A stretch of DNA of 63,962 bases, counting the filler, from Parasitella parasitica NRRL 2501 (lineage: Eukaryota; Fungi; Mucoromycota), in the NCBI GenBank assembly GCA_025201805.1. It is 8 parts of 8 records of this genome, joined end to end, with 100 filler letters (N's around TTAATTAATTAA, not from the genome) between each part and the next. Parts side by side here need not be neighbours in the genome. Positions count along the whole stretch, not along the records: positions 1 to 25,577 come from MU619386.1; 7 more parts are not named here. One strand, written 5' to 3'. Numbering within the stretch: position 1 is the stretch's first letter; every line of letters begins with the position of its first letter. Position numbers and translations under genes: made by a program. The notes under the pieces were generated by a model. The model worked only from the letters and a program-made list of their open reading frames with translations. It made no database searches and was not told where the DNA came from. Positions 2,843 through 61,964 of the stretch are shown here, piece after piece.

Positions 2843-3942
2843 TTAGCAGATTTCTTCTTTGAAGGTAGGACGATTAGAAAAGTAGTTGGTGCTGTACCTT
2901 ATCCAACCATCGCAATCTTCTTTGGTGTTTTCTCTACTGGAATCTTTAATATACTGCGAAAATTCATTTTTGCCCAAGCCTGGCTTTCTCTTTGTCAAAA
3001 TTTTGAGCTTTGAAAAGCTTTCTTCGATTGGAATCAAAAAAGGCGAATAAGGAGGCTAGAAGTGTAGTTTATACCCTGTAGTCTGGATGTAATAATTTTT
3101 GACTTCACAGGAAATATGGATTCCAGCATTGTCCATTATGAAATAACGCGGTGCAGCATTACTATCATCGAGTCTTTTGATCAAAGGTTCCCAGAAAATT
3201 GATAAAAATTGCTGAAGTCGTACCTCCTTTACATTTTTAGCGGAAACATCTTCAACACTTTTGTTCATGATTGCTATGATAATAGTAACGCTCGGCGCGC
3301 ACTTCGTCTTGGTATATTTATCGTAGCGTTTTTACCTTTGCGAGACCATCCTTGTCGACAGATCAGATTTACGTTAAAACTTGATTCATCTATAAAGAAG
3401 CAATTAGTTTTGTAGGATATTCCTAGGCCTTCCAAAGATTCGACGAAAGTCTTTCTTGAGACGATAGTAGCCGGATCGTTTCGTCTTTTTCAAGGGACTT
3501 TGATCTTTTCAACGTAGATCCGATGTGTTTTCTGATTTTTCGAGGAAAATGCCAGAAAAAGAGATGCCTTTCTCACGGCTATCATTAAACTCCTCATATA
3601 ACTCGTCCTGCATCGTCCCAAGAGTCAGAGCACAGTTTTTATCGAAAAGTTCAATTGGATATCCTAAATGAATCTCGCTAAGCTTGCTGGCTTCAGTCTT
3701 TCTACCCCCTCTTGGCTTCGGCATAACTTCATGCGTTTTCATCCAGTGATCTCTGATCCTATCAACTGTTGATCTTGGTAAGCCAAATAGCCTAGCAGCT
3801 GCAGAGACACTCATGTCTTCTTCTCTGATTGTGAAACCCATTATTCTCTCACAAGTCTCTAAAGATATTTTGTTCTTTTTATTAATTCTTTTCTAGTAGT
3901 CTTGTTATTGGTGGCAATATAGTTTTTTTTATTCGATTTCAT
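2843..3942 (-). pseudogene. Tc1/IS630-like DDE transposase pseudogene
   Basis: HTH (MSVSAAARLFGLPRSTVDRI...PRGGRK), first Asp in IDESSFNV, then YFIMDNAGIH...F*PPYSPFLIPIEE with 35 residues between D and E. Premature TAG at 3056 and frameshifts. Confidence 0.85.
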
Positions 3943-9833: not shown

Positions 9834-11977
9834 ATGAGCTCTTTATTAGCTATATTACTTGTTGTGAATTCAACGAGAGGTCATCATTTTCTCTTTAGTT
9901 ATCCACCAGATCCTCAAAGGCCGTCATCAAGCAGACATGCCAGCAATTGTGCCAACGACTTTGCTGTAGGGTCTTCCATGGCTACAAGAATATCGCAAAA
10001 CGATATAGAAGAAAGCAGACGCTCATCAAACGCCTCAAAAAGTAACAGCAGCAACAATGAAAGCAACGGTAGCAGCAGTGTTGCGGGAAATAATAACAAC
10101 AAGGCAAACAAAGACATATTTGCTGGTCGCGATACCATATTCAATATTGACGTATCCTTTCTAGCGGATGCGCTTGCACCTAAATCACCATTATGCGACA
10201 GAAAATTCCAATTGAGCATGGACGATTTGACGTTTGTTGGACATCCCGTCAGTCTTAGTTCGCCTCAGCACCAACATCAGCACCAGCACCAGCATCAGCA
10301 TCAGCATCAGCATCAGCATCAGCAAGCAGACACAGAGGATCACGATACTGAATACATGGCATCTTCACGCTCGCCTAAACCGCCTTCTCAATTAAACTCT
10401 CCAAATACGCAACCTACATCCTCTGCATCTTCTCAGCAGCCTCTATCATCACCTTCTTCATATGCTAATCCGAATAGACACCAGGCTAACGATGACACCA
10501 ACGAAGAAACGCCCGATGACAACGACGGCGATGATGAAAATGACAATGAATCAGGGTCGGATGAGTTCCCAAGCTCCACATCAATCCATATGACACTTTT
10601 CCATGTAGTATTTGTCATGACTCCACCTGATTTAGAATTGAACACTCAAGTAGAGACCATTTATAAAAACGTCATTTTGAGGTATTCCTCCGCATTGCGC
10701 TACGAACAACTTCGATGTGGATATGTTCAAGAAGAGATAGAAAAAGTGCTCGGGCTAAAAGAGGAGGCATTCAATAAAGGTAATAGACAGCTGTTTTTGA
10801 GCCACATTGTAATCTAATCTCTGTAAGCTAGGTATTCCTTACGACCAGGTTATGCGAGAAATCTTGAGAGAGTCATCATTGGCACGAGATATTCGACAAA
10901 TCTACACAGCTATATCGGCAAATACAGCAGCACATGTTATTATAAATGACTTTATTGATCTCTCGCTTCAAATCCCCGTAATTGGCACAAACAACTCTTG
11001 CGAATCATCAATGACAGTAGACAGGGAAAGCCTCATGTCGCCAACGCAAAGGGCTAGAGATACTTTTACTGGATCATCCCTGATGGATATATATAGTGTA
11101 GCAGGCTATGAATACGACAACTATCCAGTGCTATGCCCCTATCACACCTTACTTTTACTGGAAGATCCTGAGGAAGTGCTGAAAAACATGCCTCTGGATG
11201 CCAGCCCTACACTGGTGCAGCTAGTGCAGATTTTGACGCCTACACAGAGCTTGCAAGAACTACATTTGCTGCTGGATTGCTCGCTGGCGCAAATATACCG
11301 ACTGGCAGCACATTTGATCTACTGGAGAAAAGCAAAGCTGATATACACTATTAGCACACGAAATATATATGTGGTTTCTCCAACAGCGAAATTGGATGAG
11401 TGAGTAGTTTCTTGTTGTATGCAGTGATATTATTAACCGTTGATGTAGCATTGTAAGCCTAGAAGTAGATTTTAAGCTGCATATACCAAATCTTAGCTTA
11501 CCAGTGTTGCTATCCAAGTTATCGCATGCTCAGCAATATCATCTAGTATATCGTGTCAAGGAACTGAAAACCCAGTATTTAGAAGCTATCACATATCTGA
11601 TCCGCAAAGACCTGGTGGTGCAACTGCACATGTACTTGGTGCTGCTAGTACCTCCCAACAAAAAGCCTGGCAATGAAACACCACAATCGCAGTACGATGG
11701 CAGCTCACAATTGGGCGATGGCTCTCAGCAAGACGCAATCTCATCAAGTCCTAACAACACTAACGTCAGCAACGATCCTGAATGGAATAGGCTTAAGAGA
11801 CTGACGTATGAGCGAGCGCCAAAGGAGGTTGCAGAGCTTTTTGAAAGGCTGAAGCCATATATGAGCGGCCAGCACCATATCGAAGAAATCACCTACCGTG
11901 AAGGCATTTCGAGAAGACAGCTTGGTCTAGTTCTAAAGTATTATCGAGATAAAATTGTCACTGTATATCATTATTGA
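9834..11977 (+). CDS. NPR3: Npr3/NPRL3, GATOR1 (SEACIT) subunit
   Basis: Exons 9834-10779, 10832-11399, 11449-11977 in frame. LCDRKFQLSMDDLTFVGHP, ALRYEQLRCGYV, PYHTLLLL, LAAHLIYWRKAK, C-terminal GQHHIEEITYREGISR. Confidence 0.92.
10266..10326 (+). repeat. Coding hexamer microsatellite (CAGCAY)n encoding (QH)9QQ
   Basis: cagcaccaacatcagcaccagcaccagcatcagcat... inside NPR3 exon 1. Confidence 0.95.
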
Positions 11978-12041
11978 GCACTAAACAACAACCAAGGAAA
12001 TGTTGCTACTTGAGTATATGTATTTGTTTTAATAAATTTTA

Positions 12042-13910
12042 TCAAGTCATGGTGTTATTTGGGTTGGGATAAAATACAATAGACGTAGGATCTGACAACA
12101 AACCACTGCCAAACCCAAAAAAGTCCAGCCCATTGATGCGATCTGGATTTAGGATAAAGACGGTGACATTGAACGCAACACCACCCAACAGCAAAACCAG
12201 CCAAGCCAGGATAGGAAGAGCTTCCTTAAATTGACTACAAACTCTGCTCTCGCGTTTAAGTTCTGCCGCTGACCTGGCAGATGTGCCCCATCCGACATCC
12301 CATAACGAGATGATAGCCCACAGTTTGGCAGGTACCAAGCCAAACATGTAGTACAAGGAGTACACAGGGAAAGCCAAAAATCGCAGGTTGCGGGTCACAA
12401 GTATGGAATAGAAGGTCTTGATGCAGGCAATCGCAAGCAACGAAATCAGCCATACACAAAGCACAAATGGTGATTTGCTAAACAAAATCTGAAATATGGA
12501 AAACAGCAATACAAACGGATAAATGCCTTGATAGAAGAGCTCGGCCGCCATCCAAGGGCTGTGCTTATGAAGACTGCGCGCATTCCAAAACAGTTCGCGG
12601 TAGAAGCTCTTGGACCATCTTGTTTGCTGCTTGAACCAGCGCAGAAAGGCCGTGGGCGTCTCGGTTTCACAGAAGGCCAAATGAGTATAAACCACGCGAT
12701 ATCCCTGCAACAGGGTTCGATTTGTCAAATGTCGATCATCGCCATAGGTGCATTCCATGCCCAAAAAGCGCTGGTTGATCCAATCATCCAAAACTTCCCT
12801 CAAAACATGCGATCTATATATGCCCATTGGACCTGATACGCATGTAACGCACCGGTTGAAGCTCTGTGCCGACCGTTCAATGTTAAAAGCCATCCAGTAG
12901 CGTAAAGAAGACATGAATGACAGTACACTATCAAAGGCGTTCCAAATACGCACGTCCCCAGCAGCAGCACCAATGTTGGGGAACCAGTAGAGGGCGCTTT
13001 CCATTTCAACCATGGCGTTAGGATCAAACTTTGTGTCTGAGTCTGTGGACATGACAGCATCACATCCAGCAGCCATCAAGACGCGGAAAGCAGTGTACAT
13101 TGCATGGCGTTTACCGCGGTGTGGTTGCATGTAGCAGACAGGGGTTGTGTCGCTTGGTAGTGTAAATGTGTCTCGCAACAGCTGGTCGTAATTAGGCTCA
13201 GTTTCTGCCTTTTCACCCCCCTCTTCTTGTCGCTCTCGAGCATTCTTTCGAATCTTTTCAAAGGAGTCAGATAATAGCTCTGGCAGCACTAATATGGGGC
13301 TTTGCGGGAATATATTTTGAAAGAGATTTGCCATCTCTCTGTCCTCTGGTGCATCACCGTCAATCACAACAATCACCTTGAAAGTGTCAGGATAGTTAAG
13401 CTCTTTGATAGACTCTAGACATTTGGTAAACAGTGTAGGCTCTTCACGATAACCCACTACGGCCAATCCCATGACAGTAGCAGGCCGTCCTTCCTTTTTC
13501 AATCCTGATTCGCTCTGTGACACTGTGGAAGAAGTAGACGAAGATGCTGATAATGTGTGAGCTTGATTGTCACAAGATGCGATAATTTTCTCTGGAAAAC
13601 CTTGTTGATCTACATAGTCAATCTGAATGACTTTTTCATTGATAGACTGGTGCTTCATATGTTGAAATCGTGAAACTGCGCTTGGTAACTTCTTTTTGTA
13701 TCTGTGCACCATAATTCGATTCAATGTGGCGAACAAAAGCTGCAGGAAAATGAATAAAAATACAATTGCGCCGTAAACACCAAGCACCCAGAATGATTTC
13801 CTTGTGATTTCTAAACGTAGCGCATAGCCAACCATGGCTGGCACAACAAAAAAGCATGAAATGGCCACTGAATATAGTATTTTCAGTGGTAATGTCCAAT
13901 GCACTGTCAT
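12042..13910 (-). CDS. Class I hyaluronan synthase-like GT2 processive glycosyltransferase, 622 aa, intronless
   Basis: Two N-terminal TM helices, GYREEP, VIDG, GKRHAM, DSDT, RYWMAFNIERSAQS, CVSGPMGIYR, CTYGDDRHLTN, QQTRWSKS, C-terminal TMs and GWGTSAR. Likely start MTVHW at 13910. Confidence 0.9.
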   Translation of the reverse strand: MTVHWTLPLKILYSVAISCFFVVPAMVGYALRLEITRKSFWVLGVYGAIVFLFIFLQLLFATLNRIMVHRYKKKLPSAVSRFQHMKHQSINEKVIQIDYVDQQGFPEKIIASCDNQAHTLSASSSTSSTVSQSESGLKKEGRPATVMGLAVVGYREEPTLFTKCLESIKELNYPDTFKVIVVIDGDAPEDREMANLFQNIFPQSPILVLPELLSDSFEKIRKNARERQEEGGEKAETEPNYDQLLRDTFTLPSDTTPVCYMQPHRGKRHAMYTAFRVLMAAGCDAVMSTDSDTKFDPNAMVEMESALYWFPNIGAAAGDVRIWNAFDSVLSFMSSLRYWMAFNIERSAQSFNRCVTCVSGPMGIYRSHVLREVLDDWINQRFLGMECTYGDDRHLTNRTLLQGYRVVYTHLAFCETETPTAFLRWFKQQTRWSKSFYRELFWNARSLHKHSPWMAAELFYQGIYPFVLLFSIFQILFSKSPFVLCVWLISLLAIACIKTFYSILVTRNLRFLAFPVYSLYYMFGLVPAKLWAIISLWDVGWGTSARSAAELKRESRVCSQFKEALPILAWLVLLLGGVAFNVTVFILNPDRINGLDFFGFGSGLLSDPTSIVFYPNPNNTMT

Positions 13911-14648
13911 CTTTTTCTGGTGTTTGGATATGTATATATATATATACGAATGTAATAGCAAAAGGAAAAAGAAATAAAAAAGTATTTCCTGTGATGATCC
14001 ATAATATTTAGGAAAATTTCGCTTTTTTGTTTTTTCCCAATTGTTCCAATATGCCATGTTTGGTGTGAGCCATTGCCAGACATATAGTAGCTATAACTGT
14101 AGAGAACTACGACTAGCTCAATCAGTGTTACCTATAGATGCTTCGTTGAATTTCCACTCGTGGTTTGGGCTTCTATATTTACATGATATTATATGCTCAA
14201 TTTCTGATTAGGTAATTGAGTATTGTTAATGCAAGCTGTTTGTCACATCTGAATCATGCTTGTCATGTATCAAAGTATATGTTTAATTCATTTAATTTGG
14301 ATTGTCTACTTATGCCTTGAGATTAAGCCACCTTTTCCTTTGATGTAGATCACCTTCGTATGCAGAATGTAGCTTATTGTTAAATAATGAAATATAGTCT
14401 GATCTTGGATATTTTGAATCGTCGAGATTAAAATGAAAGAAAATAAGCAGAAATGTGTTAATGTATGAATGTTTCCAAGTATTTTCAGACCAATTGCACT
14501 CTATACTTTGGCCTAGGTTCGCTTTTCTTCAGCTTCAGTGGGCAGAGGAACAGCTGTTTGCATTTTTTATCTGTTAACATGGATGCGCTCAATTCCTCGG
14601 TACATTTTTCCTTATAAAACATTAATATTGTAGAAAAGCTTTCTTCAA

Positions 14649-38161: not shown

Positions 38162-38619
38162 TGTCATGAATCAACTAACGTCAGTAATAACCATGGGAAA
38201 AACATCATGCATGCGCAGTTCTGAAACATATAAACAAACATCATCTGAATCAACATCATGCATGCACAGTCTTGAAACATACAAACGAATGCCTGAAACA
38301 CTCACATGATACAACCATGCATAACAAAGGCCAATTCATGTACCCACGCCCACCTGCATGCATAATCAGCAACATCAGCTGCACTCTATCAGATAAATCA
38401 GATGTTAATACGTTTCATGTATTAATAGTCTTGCACTTTTCTTTCTTATAAATACCTGCCACTTGGACACATCTTTCATTCTCTCCTCATCAGTTATCTT
38501 GTTATATTTATATCAATAAACATTCAAAATACAAGCAATCAAGCAAACATTAATCGTAAAGTATCTCCCTGATATCACTCTGCACTACCTTGCCCTCTAC
38601 CCCCAGCCAGTTCATGACA
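38162..38619 (+). mobile_element. Solo LTR, family E (458 bp)
   Basis: Termini TGTCATGAA...TTCATGACA with perfect 5-bp TSD CCGCC. TATAAATA at ~38447 and AATAAA at ~38515. Removal restores YR MA|AFLRPSDL. Confidence 0.92.
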
Positions 38620-39288
38620 CCGCCATAGCCAAAAGAAAAGACAATTTTTGTTGTAATTTCTTAGCCGGAGTAGTTGGACGAGAAGGGATGGAGCGAGTAT
38701 ATTCCAAAGCAGGGGAAAGGTCAACCGTAGGACAATGTATCGCCACTGGAGGAGCAAGACGAGACATAGTAGCCAAATAAGAGTTAACCAAAGTATCCGC
38801 ACTGATTGTAGAAGGATGATCATGTAAATGAGCAATAGCAGCCCTAGCCAACTTGAGCGTATTAACCTGGTAGTTATGAGCCTGTTTCAACGTAGCTAGA
38901 AAATTCACCACATCTGCTCCCGAAAAGGCTGTTAAAGAGACCTCGCTTAATTGAGCCCAAGCAATGAACTGAAGTTGGTACTTTTGATACCCTTTGTTGG
39001 TAGGAGTAGGCGCTAGTTGTTGTCTTAATAGATCTGCTGTAGCTTGAGGGTTTAAATGTTGTGCTTCCAATTTGTTCCTGATAATTGCCACACGGATAGA
39101 TTCCAATTCCTCTGTATTAGTGGATGGGGTGTTGCTGGAGAAGTCGTTCGTATCGCTTGAGGAGGGAGTATCCAAGGAGCAGAAAGAGCCAACTGTTGCA
39201 CCAGAGGGAACCAAAGAGCACTCGGCCAATATGGCACTACCAGAATCACCGGGGGAAGTTTCTCTTGTAGAATCTTGTTCAATACTCG

Positions 39289-40212
39289 TGATGTATATTT
39301 CAGATATTTCAATACAATAAAAAGAGACTTGTAATAATTCACAGCTTTCAACTGTATCCGAACAATAAAAGAAGTATCTCGTNNNNNNNNNNNNNNNNNN
39401 NNNNNNNNNNNNNNNNNNNNNNNNNNNNNNNNNNNNNNNNNNNNNNNNNNNNNNNNNNNNNNNNNNNNNNNNNNNNNNNNNNNNNNNNNNNNNNNNNNNN
39501 NNNNNNNNNNNNNNNNNNNNNNNNNNNNNNNNNNNNNNNNNNNNNNNNNNNNNNNNNNNNNNNNNNNNNNNNNNNNNNNNNNNNNNNNNNNNNNNNNNNN
39601 NNNNNNNNNNNNNNNNNNNNNNNNNNNNNNNNNNNNNNNNNNNNNNNNNNNNNNNNNNNNNNNNNNNNNNNNNNNNNNNNNNNNNNNNNNNNNNNNNNNN
39701 NNNNNNNNNNNNNNNNNNNNNNNNNNNNNNNNNNNNNNNNNNNNNNNNNNNNNNNNNNNNNNNNNNNNNNNNNNNNNNNNNNNNNNNNNNNNNNNNNNNN
39801 NNNNNNNNNNNNNNNNNNNNNNNNNNNNNNNNNNNNNNNNNNNNNNNNNNNNNNNNNNNNNNNNNNNNNNNNNNNNNNNNNNNNNNNNNNNNNNNNNNNN
39901 NNNNNNNNNNNNNNNNNNNNNNNNNNNNNNNNNNNNNNNNNNNNNNNNNNNNNNNNNNNNNNNNNNNNNNNNNNNNNNNNNNNNNNNNNNNNNNNNNNNN
40001 NNNNNNNNNNNNNNNNNNNNNNNNNNNNNNNNNNNNNNNNNNNNNNNNNNNNNNNNNNNNNNNNNNNNNNNNNNNNNNNNNNNNNNNNNNNNNNNNNNNN
40101 NNNNNNNNNNNNTTCGTATCTGATACAATCATATAATATATTTGCAGTAAATCAGCAAGCGTAGTACTTGTAGGAATTGATATAGTGCAGATGTAGCAGT
40201 GCGTATACATCA
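39289..40212. mobile_element. LTR element, family D (solo LTR or collapsed element spanning an N gap)
   Basis: Termini TGATGTATA...TATACATCA with perfect TSD ACTCG. Removal restores NLITR|VLNK. Confidence 0.88.
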
Positions 40213-41531
40213 ACTCGAGTGATCAGGTTCCATGGGGGATTTATGAACGGCTTGTCCCACGTCTTCCATTGGCAGGTAAACGCATCCGTATGGATAGCCT
40301 CTGGATCCGGAAGCCATGACACGTACCTTGGTAACAATTTGGTCGTCCGGTCTGCAAAGAGATCTATCGAGCAAGGGCCCCACTGTTGGTTGATTTGTTG
40401 GAAAACTGACGGTAGTATTTGCCATAGATTCTTGAAAAATGTTCGGCGAGACTCCATATTCGCAATCGTGTTGTGAACCCCTTTGATATGCTGTGCCTGA
40501 ATCGTAATGTTCCGTTGGAGACACCAGTTCCATACTTCTGTTGCTAGATTCAAAAAGGATAGCGACCTCGTTCCACCCTGTTTGTTGATATAAGATAGAC
40601 TCGTTGTGTTGTCTGTTCGAATCAGAATTGTTAAGTTCTGAAGTCCTTGAAATGTTTTTAGGGCAAGGTGAGCCGCCTTCAGTTCTCGCCAGTTGATCGA
40701 TTGACTTGCTTCTTCCTGCGTCCAATATCCATGAGCACGCTTCGTCCCTAGACTGCACCCCCAACCGGTGTTGCTGGCATCCACGAATATTGTCTGAGAG
40801 GGAGTTGATGGGAGGAGGGACCGGCCATTCCACTTCTTCAGGTTGTGGTACCACCAAATCAATTCTTCCTTGCTTGCTAGGTCCAGAGGTTAGGACTTGT
40901 CCCAATCTGCTTCCGATTTCACCACCTGGTTCTTGAAGTACAGGAGATGCCGAGTGTAGAGACGTGCTGGGAAGATGGCAAAGTTTGCTGCTTGTATCCT
41001 CATTGTTAGACTGTGTATCACACGAGGGGATTGTCGAGTAGGTTTGTCCAACACTTGTTTGATAGAGCGACGAATGTCGCGGAGCTTCTTTAGAGGAAGG
41101 GCTGCTGTCATTGTCCGAGTATTCAATAAGAAGCCTAGGTGTTCTAGTGATTGAGTGGGGGTTAACACCGATTTCTTCAGATTCACAATCCATCCTAGTT
41201 GTTGAAGAAGAGTTACAACTGCCTGGGCTTGTTGGAGGGCTAATTGCCTTGTGCTTGCTACCAGAATCCAGTCGTCCAAGTAGGCGGAGATCCTGTAACC
41301 TTGAGATCGGAAGTGCTCTAATATGGGCCTGCAGACTTTGGTGAACACATAAGAACTTGATGCCAATCCGAAAGCTGTCGTACAGAATTGGTATACTTGA
41401 TTCTTCCATTTGAGCCGTAAGAAGCGTCTTGATTCCGGGTGGAGCCCTATATGAAGGAAAGCATCTGATAAATCTATTGAAACAAGGTAATCGTTCGGAT
41501 TGATTAATAGTGAGACTTCCCTGATTGTCTC

Positions 41532-41605
41532 TGTGAAATACATTCACTATGATGATCTGCATTCCACTTCTAGATTCATCCAGTTACCTTAAATTGATAT
41601 AAACT
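41532..41605. mobile_element. LTR family C terminus inserted in DIRS RT
   Basis: Begins TGTGAAATACATTCACTATG exactly where the RT homology (ETIREV) stops. Matches ~35878-35932 and the reverse of 57557-57630. Confidence 0.8.
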
Positions 41606-41705: not shown

Positions 41706-42256
41706 AAAAACTCAAATACCACAGCTATAGGAATAAGCAAAAGGCATTGACCGAAATGTGCAAGCGTTTGTTTACAGGTAGCAGAAAATATCAAGAAGAC
41801 AATCCTGATATACAGCAAGCAAATCAACAAAAGTGGAAACCGCTAGCCCCTAGAGACAATGCTGGTGAGGCTGAAAGACCTACAGTGGTGGCGTTTGGCT
41901 CTGCTCTGTTCGGTGGACTTCGTGGGAATGTACCCTCTCCAACAAAAGTGTTCAGAAAAGCCTTGCTAAATTACGTCAAGTCGATCAGACGGAACCGACC
42001 AAATTCAAGAAAGTACGTGGTTATGATTGACGAGTACCTGACAAGTCAAATATGCCCCAGATGCCACCTACGAAGTACTACTAACGAACGAGACAATGCC
42101 AATTTTAAGATCCATCCAGTTCTCAGCTGCAACACCTGTCACACTCGATGGAACAGAGATCATATGGCAAGTCTCAATATACGCTCAATCTTCTTGCATA
42201 TGGCTGCCAACAACAACAACCGGCCGGAAGAGTTTCAGCGAGGTATGCTATCATGA
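41706..42256 (+). CDS. Fanzor1 (TnpB-like RNA-guided endonuclease), C-terminal part; 5' end lost in a gap (Fz-B)
   Basis: Open from the gap: KLKYHSYRNKQKALTEMCKRL, VVAFGSALFG, RuvC-II IDEYLTSQ, Zn finger CPRC...CNTC, RuvC-III WNRDHMASLNI, RPEEF. Confidence 0.9.
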
Positions 42257-60593: not shown

Positions 60594-61964
60594 CTAAAGC
60601 CTATTTTTCTTTGATCTTTCGGTAATTGCATTGGTTTGGTTTGATTGTCCAAATTTGCGCTTGCCTTGTGGGATGTCAATTGAGTTTGCTAGACTTAGTT
60701 GCGGATGACGTTTGCTCATCTGTCTTGTAATGACCCCACGAGAACTGTGTGAAGCCTGAGTTGAATGAGGAAGGGTGGTGCTGTGCTTAACGGTTGTCGG
60801 ACTAGAGGTGGAGGAAGAAGGTTTGATTGTATTAACTTTTGACCTATCGTCAATGTGGCGATCCATGTCTAAATTAGGAGCTGCCACAATTTCTCGGTAT
60901 ATATTACTAGGGGTGAAATCATTTTTGATATGGCTTTTGACTTGTTTTCTTTTGTCATTGATTATTTTCTTTACTTCCACGGGTTTACCTGCATGATCTT
61001 TCTTTACTTTTTTCCAATATTCAATAATGAATTCGGTGTCAGTGAAATCATTTGCTTTGACCCATGAATTATGCTCCTTGCCATAGTTTTTCCACTTTAC
61101 AAGATATTCGCGATTTTGAGGGTCTCCACTATCTTGGATTATGGCTTCGACCTCAAACAGCTCGCTCTTGGGAATGATCTCCTCTTGGTTTATTGCTTTT
61201 AGCTCTGAAGCCACGTAGTTACGGGACATTAGCATGCCTTCTTCGTCACGTAAGATATATGCGCCACCCTCGTTTTGTCTAATCACTTGGTATGGGCCTA
61301 CGTACGACGGTGCAAATGCGTTTGTTTTATGTAGGATTTTATGCATCACGTATGTCCCTGGTTTAAAGTTTACTTGAACATTTTTCTGATCAATTTTACC
61401 ATTTAACTTATCAGTGTAACGCTTGTGCTGCTCTGCGATCGCTGGGAACACTAATTGACTCATATAGTCGATACGCTTCAAAAGCTCGTCATTTGTCATA
61501 TAACGCTTACTCTTCAACTTGCCGTCCGCATCATAATAATTGATTGGAGCGTTCATATTGCGAGCATACATCAGCGAGAATGGGGAGCTTTGTAACTTCT
61601 TCGAAATTTTGTTGTTTATCATCAGTGCGCAGATGGGTAAATAATTGTGCCAATCCTCAATATTTCCATTGAGTAATTTTGCTAACGTTTTCTTTACAGT
61701 ACCCACGTATCTTTCAGCGATACCGTTTCCTTGCGGGTGGTATTGTGTAGCATAGCGTTTTTCAATTTGCATGGATTGAAACAACATCGTATGCAATTGA
61801 TTCGACCATTCTGCACCATGATCCGACACTACGAAGAATCTGGGCAGACCGATGATGCCAAAAGCATCAATCATCGCAATAGCTACGCTTTTAGCTGTCT
61901 TGTCAACTAGAGGTTTCAGTATGACAAATCGAGTACAAACGTCCACCATTAGTAATAAGTATGT
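60594..61964 (-). mobile_element. Ty3/Gypsy chromovirus pol 3' end: integrase plus chromodomain
   Basis: VDVCTRF, VSDHGAEW, HPQGNGIAER (D-35-E), GPY motif, chromodomain FEVEAII...EYLVKWKNY...NSWV...YW. Confidence 0.93.

Follow-up and report, generated by a model that had tools for sequence, protein, structure and literature searches.

The window, the whole stretch of DNA analysed here, comprises 63,962 nucleotides (filler included) of Parasitella parasitica NRRL 2501, joined from eight parts of eight genome records. Its minus strand holds, at 13910–12042, one open frame that translates to a protein of 622 amino acids. The original prediction had placed here an intronless gene, amid multi-intron neighbours, for a glycosyltransferase (GT2) of the vertebrate/chlorovirus hyaluronan synthase (HAS) type. 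A single contig of run X1 (one run, possibly of the same isolate) spans 11449–13958 without a skip, and the run was judged to be RNA because it contains nine GT-AG joints in NPR3, fimbrin and the next gene. It follows that the gene is transcribed and has a single exon, as predicted, with neighbours that are spliced in the same run; the frame at 12042–13910 is intact. Because the contig lacks strand information and runs on into convergent NPR3, neither strand nor expression level can be read from it. The features of the locus and of the encoded protein are listed below (TMH, transmembrane helix; CvHAS, chlorovirus HAS; XlHAS1, Xenopus laevis HAS1).

12042..13910, minus strand: coding sequence, single exon, 622 aa, class I hyaluronan-synthase-family GT2 (sequence and unspliced RNA contig)
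13911..13958, minus strand: transcribed leader (likely 5' UTR), with a TA repeat; ends where the RNA contig ends
13821..13895, minus strand: predicted TMH1, aa 6–30 (AlphaFold2 helix, pLDDT about 50–64)
13722..13793, minus strand: predicted TMH2, aa 40–63, with GVYG equivalent to Xenopus HAS1 GLYG (AlphaFold2 and alignment)
13035..13043, minus strand: DSD (DxD) metal-binding motif, aa 290–292, equivalent to CvHAS D201/D203 (alignment)
12873..12902, minus strand: interface helix IFH1, RYWMAFNIER, aa 337–346; R337/R346 equivalent to XlHAS1 R287/R296 (alignment)
12732..12743, minus strand: GDDR, aa 390–393, with catalytic base D392; codon 393 is the putative site of an ancestral phase-2 intron, absent here
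12615..12629, minus strand: QQTRW (QxxRW), aa 428–432 (alignment)
12393..12557, minus strand: predicted TMH3 and TMH4, aa 452–506, with channel lysine K498 (XlHAS1 K448) (AlphaFold2 and alignment)
12273..12290, minus strand: gating loop WGTSAR, aa 541–546, in the register of vertebrate WGTSGR (alignment)
12150..12245, minus strand: predicted TMH5, aa 556–587, the last membrane helix (AlphaFold2 and hydropathy)
12045..12134, minus strand: C-terminal tail replacing TMH6, P-x-[SN]-I-[VI]-F-[YF], predicted extracellular (model and homologue alignment)
9834..11977, plus strand: NPR3/NPRL3, spliced, convergent neighbour, context only (ORF profile search, RNA contig)

Another in-frame ATG lies upstream at 14057. 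Since it falls outside the RNA contig, and since orthologues in the homologue alignment begin at the ATG at 13910, 622 aa is the better model. The leader boundary at 13958 is the contig end, and contigs cannot fix a start site. A public Parasitella parasitica protein (P0002) is 100% identical and starts after residue 57; compared with window positions 13740–13910 (minus strand), its model is without TMH1 and the greater part of TMH2. As the RNA contig is unspliced in that stretch, the public model looks truncated. GC3 of the gene is 0.48, compared with 0.36–0.48 in neighbouring exons.

The NPR3 stop codon lies 64 bp from that of the HAS homologue (window 11977–12042), and fimbrin flanks the other side. 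Given this spacing and the one RNA contig that the two genes share, an overlap of their 3' ends is probable. Among 91 neighbouring ORFs scanned (23 + 68), neither a pathway gene nor a partner acyltransferase was found, in a scan that can miss short exons. Elsewhere in the window, an ORF at 41756–42256 (plus strand), beside an assembly gap, has a Cas12f1-like TNB (TnpB C-terminal) domain (E 3e-10) and is possibly a Fanzor/TnpB-type remnant. Long frames without a Pfam match flank a 730-base N gap at 38612–41562 (minus strand) and probably belong to a mobile element. HTH and DDE_3 fragments and a chromodomain ORF at 3056–3892 and 60594–61949 (both minus strand) represent, respectively, the remnant of a Tc1/IS630-like transposase and a possible piece of a retroelement.

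Relationship to hyaluronan synthases

Both sequence and predicted fold place the closest solved relatives of the 622-aa protein among HAS, in agreement with the type first proposed. All five distinct sequences matched in a PDB sequence search were HAS (Xenopus HAS1, E 2e-101; chlorovirus HAS, E 1e-85). An AlphaFold2 model (pLDDT 79.9, pTM 0.80) recovered HAS at Foldseek ranks 1–13 (E 3e-36 to 1e-27), with the first chitin synthase match at E 1e-12. With VIA-align, chlorovirus HAS was the best match (Z 40.6, rmsd 3.3, 450 aligned), the other HAS value was Z 35.9 (rmsd 3.2, 467 aligned), and chitin synthases gave Z of about 17. These comparisons support assignment to the vertebrate/chlorovirus-type (class I) HAS family. 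Chitin_synth_2 and NodC profiles matched weakly, the NodC HMM (TIGR04242) reaching 166 bits against a cut-off of 550. Identity with NodC was rejected on that score, on the presence of R337 and GDDR, and on its distance in the tree; a fungal chitin synthase was rejected because QQTRW and GDDR stand instead of QRRRW and a catalytic EDR, and because fold scores were much lower.

All six motifs quoted in the original prediction are present: RYWMAFNIER (starting at residue 337), ERSAQSF (345), WINQRFLGMECTYGDDR (377), GDDRHLTNR (390), QQTRWSKS (428) and GWGTSAR (540). QRRRW is absent and the sole EDR, at 189, is off the catalytic position, so that the claimed distinction from chitin synthases stands. 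Both arginines of the RY...ER (IFH1) helix are likewise kept (R337 and R346); their counterparts in XlHAS1, R287 and R296, are described as adjoining GlcA-2, and alanine mutants of them as yielding only short oligomers (PMC11750622). Xenopus positions were mapped from the PDB-search alignment with an inferred 13-residue tag offset. Residue numbers for CvHAS were taken from PMC12987647 and PMC11750622 and located on a stand-in, a viral protein (locus L028) that fits 23 of 23 published numbers at an offset of 7. The 622-aa protein is identical to CvHAS at 22 of these 23 named residues, including Y91, H174 and Y299; the 23rd, R457, has its counterpart R546 in the vertebrate register. Of 34 functional positions compared, 29 agree with teleost HAS1 and 29 with the CvHAS stand-in, and 33 agree with at least one of the two. 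Its GlcNAc acceptor collar (Y338, F342, C357, G360, W432, S435, D392 and R393) equals that of HAS. In NodC (3/3), the residues at 337, 342 and 391 are E, C and E, as against R, F and D in the 622-aa protein.

Conservation extends to the homologues. RYWMAFN[IV]ER, GDDRHLTN and WGT[ST]AR are kept in 43/43 from Mucoromycotina, and the GlcA-contacting basic residues are all kept in the 13 Mucoromycotina rows examined (13/13). Position 337 is R in 350 and K in 26 of the 383 rows of the family alignment (R or K in 376/383); being near-universal in the collected family, it marks the family and not the product. The 26 rows with K at this first IFH1 position include P0138 (the annelid Owenia fusiformis) and a large clade in rows P0159–P0245.

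As in class I HAS, DxD, GDDR and QxxRW lie in a single GT-A domain, the IFH1 arginines R337/R346 and channel lysine K498 (XlHAS1 R287, R296 and K448) are present, and the gating loop (541–546) is joined to the TMH5 helix (556–587). The class has six helices, and five are predicted here: the AlphaFold2 model shows TMH1–5 followed by a low-confidence tail (aa 593–622), whose motif P-x-[SN]-I-[VI]-F-[YF] is kept in 38 of 43 homologues. Hydropathy was compared by the second-best hydrophobic 19-mer after the gating loop. Its score had a maximum of 1.26 and was under 1.0 in 42 of 43 full-length Mucoromycotina homologues, compared with 1.77–2.17 in four of five vertebrate-type rows ('VertLike', so labelled from tree position) and 1.57–2.03 in three chlorovirus-type rows. 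Chytrid rows have two strong hydrophobic segments after the gating loop, and Mortierella-group rows and two viral rows are intermediate (1.06–1.44). From these predictions, all 43 full-length Mucoromycotina homologues, each with a single strong segment in that region, appear to be without a sixth membrane helix. Loss of TMH6 need not abolish function, because in Xenopus HAS1 this helix is reported to border a lateral portal unused for export (PMC11750622).

Distribution and descent

A homologue search returned 1215 proteins at E 1e-20 or better. Among the 120 matches listed, about 40 are named from Mucorales, Umbelopsis and Bifiguratus (51–92% identity), including a Mucor lusitanicus orthologue at 86%, and others come from chytrids, gut fungi, Mortierellaceae, Endogone, Basidiobolus and Cystobasidium. 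Thirty representatives that were looked up added, among others, Saitoella, Laetiporus, Tilletia, Pseudomicrostroma, Cercospora and Gonapodya, together with the aphelid Paraphelidium and the annelid Owenia. The suspicion that homologues had already been auto-annotated in other Mucorales proved correct, many being labelled 'Hyaluronan synthase' by UniRef, NCBI and JGI.

From the 383-row alignment, 39 fragments and 60 near-duplicates were dropped for a first tree; the main tree used 93 hand-picked rows under LG+G4, with no mixture model and with chitin synthase and Cps1 rows left out. In the 93-row tree, Mucoromycotina, vertebrate-type and chlorovirus rows each form their own clade (100/100). The Mucoromycotina clade, on a long branch of its own, extends from Bifiguratus and Umbelopsis to the families of Mucorales. 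Chytrids, Mortierella, Basidiobolus and some Dikarya hold related clades. The three clades nest, with one bacterial-bin row, in a eukaryote-plus-virus clade (100/99) whose inner backbone order is weak. The 622-aa protein thereby groups with vertebrate and viral HAS, away from bacterial HasA-like proteins and NodC. With respect to NodC, the phylogeny proposed as a check came out on the vertebrate/viral side. In AU tests a sister relation to chloroviruses was rejected (p=0.033); placing the whole Mucoromycotina clade as sister to vertebrate HAS (p=0.24) and uniting all 33 named fungal rows in a single clade (p=0.37) were not rejected.

Related proteins suggest that the gene once had an intron. 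In all of 20 close relatives from Logan and JGI contigs the match breaks off at residue 393, 14 ending exactly at GDDR and six continuing as QV, LV or YI; fragment P0123 begins at 391. These ends and read-throughs are those expected of a phase-2 intron whose donor reads gtaa/gtga, gcaagt, gttagt or gtat. The broken rows are scattered, lying next to Umbelopsis, Lichtheimiaceae, Chlamydoabsidia, Thamnidium and Mucoraceae, and the starred branches of the tree force at least five changes between broken and unbroken rows. None occurs in the six-row clade that contains the window gene, Mucor lusitanicus, M. plumbeus and M. bainieri. The simplest reading is of one ancestral intron lost in the clade of the window gene, a loss that would account for its single-exon state. 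A metagenome scan gave 20 loci, none of them a Mucoromycotina orthologue by identity (best full-length 31–34%), and the intron was therefore reconstructed from protein fragments, not from DNA. A full-length call on a 13-kb Logan contig (P0027, sister to Syncephalastrum) would, if that contig is genomic DNA, represent a second independent loss at codon 393.

Horizontal acquisition and retroposition had both been offered as causes of the intronless state, and neither is supported by these data. A recent origin by transfer from vertebrates or chloroviruses, or by retrocopying of one of their genes, could draw on the absence of introns amid spliced neighbours, the weak deep backbone, the vertebrate sister relation at p=0.24 and a Physocladia chytrid homologue that does group with the chlorovirus clade (100/96); we nevertheless consider it very improbable, given a 100/100 Mucoromycotina clade that lies outside both donor clades, rejection of the chlorovirus sister position, a single fungal clade at p=0.37, GC3 near that of neighbouring genes, and inheritance across Mucoromycotina with 20 relatives implying a common ancestral intron at codon 393. 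On the tree and sequence data, recent horizontal transfer appears excluded; the gene may have descended from an opisthokont ancestor or have been acquired by ancient virus-mediated exchange.

Domain fusions were surveyed in 26 long homologues, and none informative on the product was found; the fused domains were GH16 (one chytrid), EAL/GGDEF, TPR, MFS and endonuclease V. The chytrid protein, P0155 from Physocladia obscura, combines an N-terminal GH16 domain with a viral-type WGTRG loop and a place in the chlorovirus clade, making a virus–fungus transfer or a synthase–hydrolase fusion possible. P0231 and P0241 are HAS-like GT2 proteins placed among the prokaryotic rows; their fusion to EAL or GGDEF-EAL suggests c-di-GMP-linked control. 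A nucleotide-sugar dehydrogenase was present in the short flanks of only 2/37 viral and 7/80 prokaryotic loci, again an uninformative result.

Candidate products

The product is likely hyaluronan or a related acidic sugar chain, and hyaluronan itself has, in our estimate, slightly better than even prospects. With the same modest leaning, we propose a class I HAS-family membrane enzyme, inherited across Mucoromycotina, that makes and secretes hyaluronan. Direct support concerns sequence, transcription, fold, conserved residues and distribution, and the mechanism is transferred from Xenopus and chlorovirus HAS. Synthesis would be primed by GlcNAc released from UDP-GlcNAc, after which a single active site (DxD 290/292, base D392 and QQTRW) would add GlcA and GlcNAc in alternation. 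K267 and R431 would handle the carboxylate there, R337, R346 and K498 would hold GlcA, and the chain would be pushed through a channel of TMH1–5, TMH6 having, on the model, given way to a short conserved outer tail. The polymer would be soluble or loosely bound at the surface, rather than a wall scaffold. An alternating chain is favoured over pure glucuronan because the GlcNAc acceptor collar is intact: the CvHAS acceptor site is reported to hold GlcNAc stably, and not GlcA, and CvHAS to need a GlcNAc primer for UDP-GlcA turnover (PMC11750622, PMC12987647).

It is also possible, with a probability clearly below that of hyaluronan, that the enzyme is a polyuronide synthase, producing beta-1,4-glucuronan (mucoric acid) or another, alternating GlcA polymer whose partner sugar is not GlcNAc. 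In favour are the presence of the gene throughout Mucorales, the cationic channel, and the long separate branch and altered C-terminus of the protein. Alpha-GlcA links, however, would not be formed from UDP-GlcA by an inverting GT2. Such links occur in mucoran, one of the polymers derived from UDP-GlcA that PMC6433966 describes in Mucorales; its list of Mucor polyuronides comprises mucoric acid (over 90% GlcA), mucoran (GlcA, Fuc, Man) and a secreted beta-1,4-glucuronan, and it attributes to Mucorales a Mn2+-dependent membrane glucuronosyl transferase for which its available text names no gene. That text describes none of these polyuronides with GlcNAc, and mentions neither hyaluronan nor GT2. 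Solid-state NMR of intact Mucorales cells is reported to have given no GlcA signal from walls dominated by chitin/chitosan, GlcA being suggested to be loosely bound or secreted (PMC11437000). The lack of GlcNAc in known Mucorales polyuronides and of GlcA in this one NMR study both count against hyaluronan; the HAS-like collar, the GlcNAc acceptor that CvHAS needs, and the occurrence of the family in chytrids and Dikarya count against a polyuronide.

Chito-oligomers or short chitin made from UDP-GlcNAc only, as by NodC or as a chitin/chitosan primer, would agree with the chitin/chitosan-dominated walls, the missing GlcA signal and the weak Chitin_synth_2 and NodC matches, and HAS enzymes are reported to make chitin oligomers at low UDP-GlcA (bioRxiv 10.64898/2026.02.21.705424). 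We regard this as improbable, in view of the absent NodC states E337 and E391, the GlcA-contacting basic residues kept in every row examined, the distance of NodC in the tree and the much lower scores of chitin synthase folds.

Hyaluronan has been regarded as a polymer of vertebrates, a few bacteria, chloroviruses and perhaps Cryptococcus only. Should hyaluronan be the product, a whole fungal subphylum would make it, which would bear on the evolution of HAS, the encounter of Mucorales with host HA receptors and the production of HA by fungi. Our broadest proposal is tentative and rather less than evenly likely: Mucorales, including agents of mucormycosis, would make true hyaluronan, a host-like surface polymer, with a five-helix vertebrate-type synthase from an old fungal HAS family (chytrids, aphelid, Mucoromycota, some Dikarya) separate from Cps1, and animal-type synthesis would predate the animal–fungus split. 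Were the product glucuronan, the gene would account for the glucuronosyl transferase activity reported from Mucor in the 1980s and would illustrate the conversion of a HAS site to homopolymer synthesis. Mucor lusitanicus is tractable, and its 86% orthologue makes both outcomes testable at once. With its predicted loss of TMH6, the enzyme would also be a natural intermediate form between bacterial enzymes with four helices and animal enzymes with six.

Comparison with known systems

The description of the protein as uncharacterised agrees with the openly accessible literature that was searched, in which no biochemistry, assay or study of any family member was found. The available portions of PMC5122149, PMC12223506 and PMC5653360 do not describe the family, and PMC3032700 gave no match for the search terms. 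The family is thus auto-annotated in databases and apparently unstudied.

Fungal chitin synthases (Chs1, Chs2) share the GT2 fold and the weak Chitin_synth_2 match, but have QRRRW and a catalytic EDR that are absent here, with 13–17% structural identity and a TM-score of about 0.4. Rhizobial NodC shares the superfamily, R346, QxxRW and DxD at 25–29% identity, and is set apart by E337, C342, E391, WLSR and the lack of a helix after the gating loop.

Cryptococcus Cps1 and the 'gamma-HAS' set are, like the protein described here, fungal processive GT2 enzymes proposed for hyaluronan, with DxD, GDD, QxxRW and KR. As presented in bioRxiv 10.64898/2026.02.21.705424, the set holds 68 putative fungal HAS from a Cps1-seeded search with a WG[T/S]R filter, having three helices and a disordered tail after the gating motif; Cps1 has RL for RY, and GGVxT, WExL, RTAxY, FxxRW and WxxxP are signatures. 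In contrast, the 622-aa protein has five predicted helices, RY, WGTSAR followed by a helix, and 0/5 of the signatures. No Mucoromycotina homologue (0/43) passes the WG[TS]R filter, and Cps1-type identity was rejected in favour of a different family; for the same reason the preprint's 'Mucor HAS' is in all likelihood a different gene.

Paramecium bursaria chlorella virus HAS (PDB 7SP6-7SPA, 8SNC-8SNE, 9YQ2/4/5), the best VIA-align match, shares 22/23 named residues and F at the H72 position. It differs in having WGTRG for WGTSAR and in having TMH6, at about 34–36% identity, and the sister relation to it was rejected (p=0.033). The best sequence and Foldseek match is Xenopus laevis HAS1 (PDB 8SMM/8SMN/8SMP), which with vertebrate HAS1-3 belongs to class 1-NR, whose members build their alternating GlcA-GlcNAc polymer as monomers and at its non-reducing end. 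Shared with it are the GT-A core, three interface helices, TMH1–5, GxYG in TMH2, equivalents of R287/R296/K448 and the WGTSxR gating-loop register. The 622-aa protein differs from it in the predicted absence of TMH6, a separate clade, two long low-confidence inserts (about aa 75–140 and 210–250) and three substitutions: F in place of H72, H in place of the W of the uracil pocket, and A in place of the gating-loop G. It resembles class 1-NR HAS in every feature tested except helix count and, judged on its sequence, should be filed as a HAS-family variant with a putative product.
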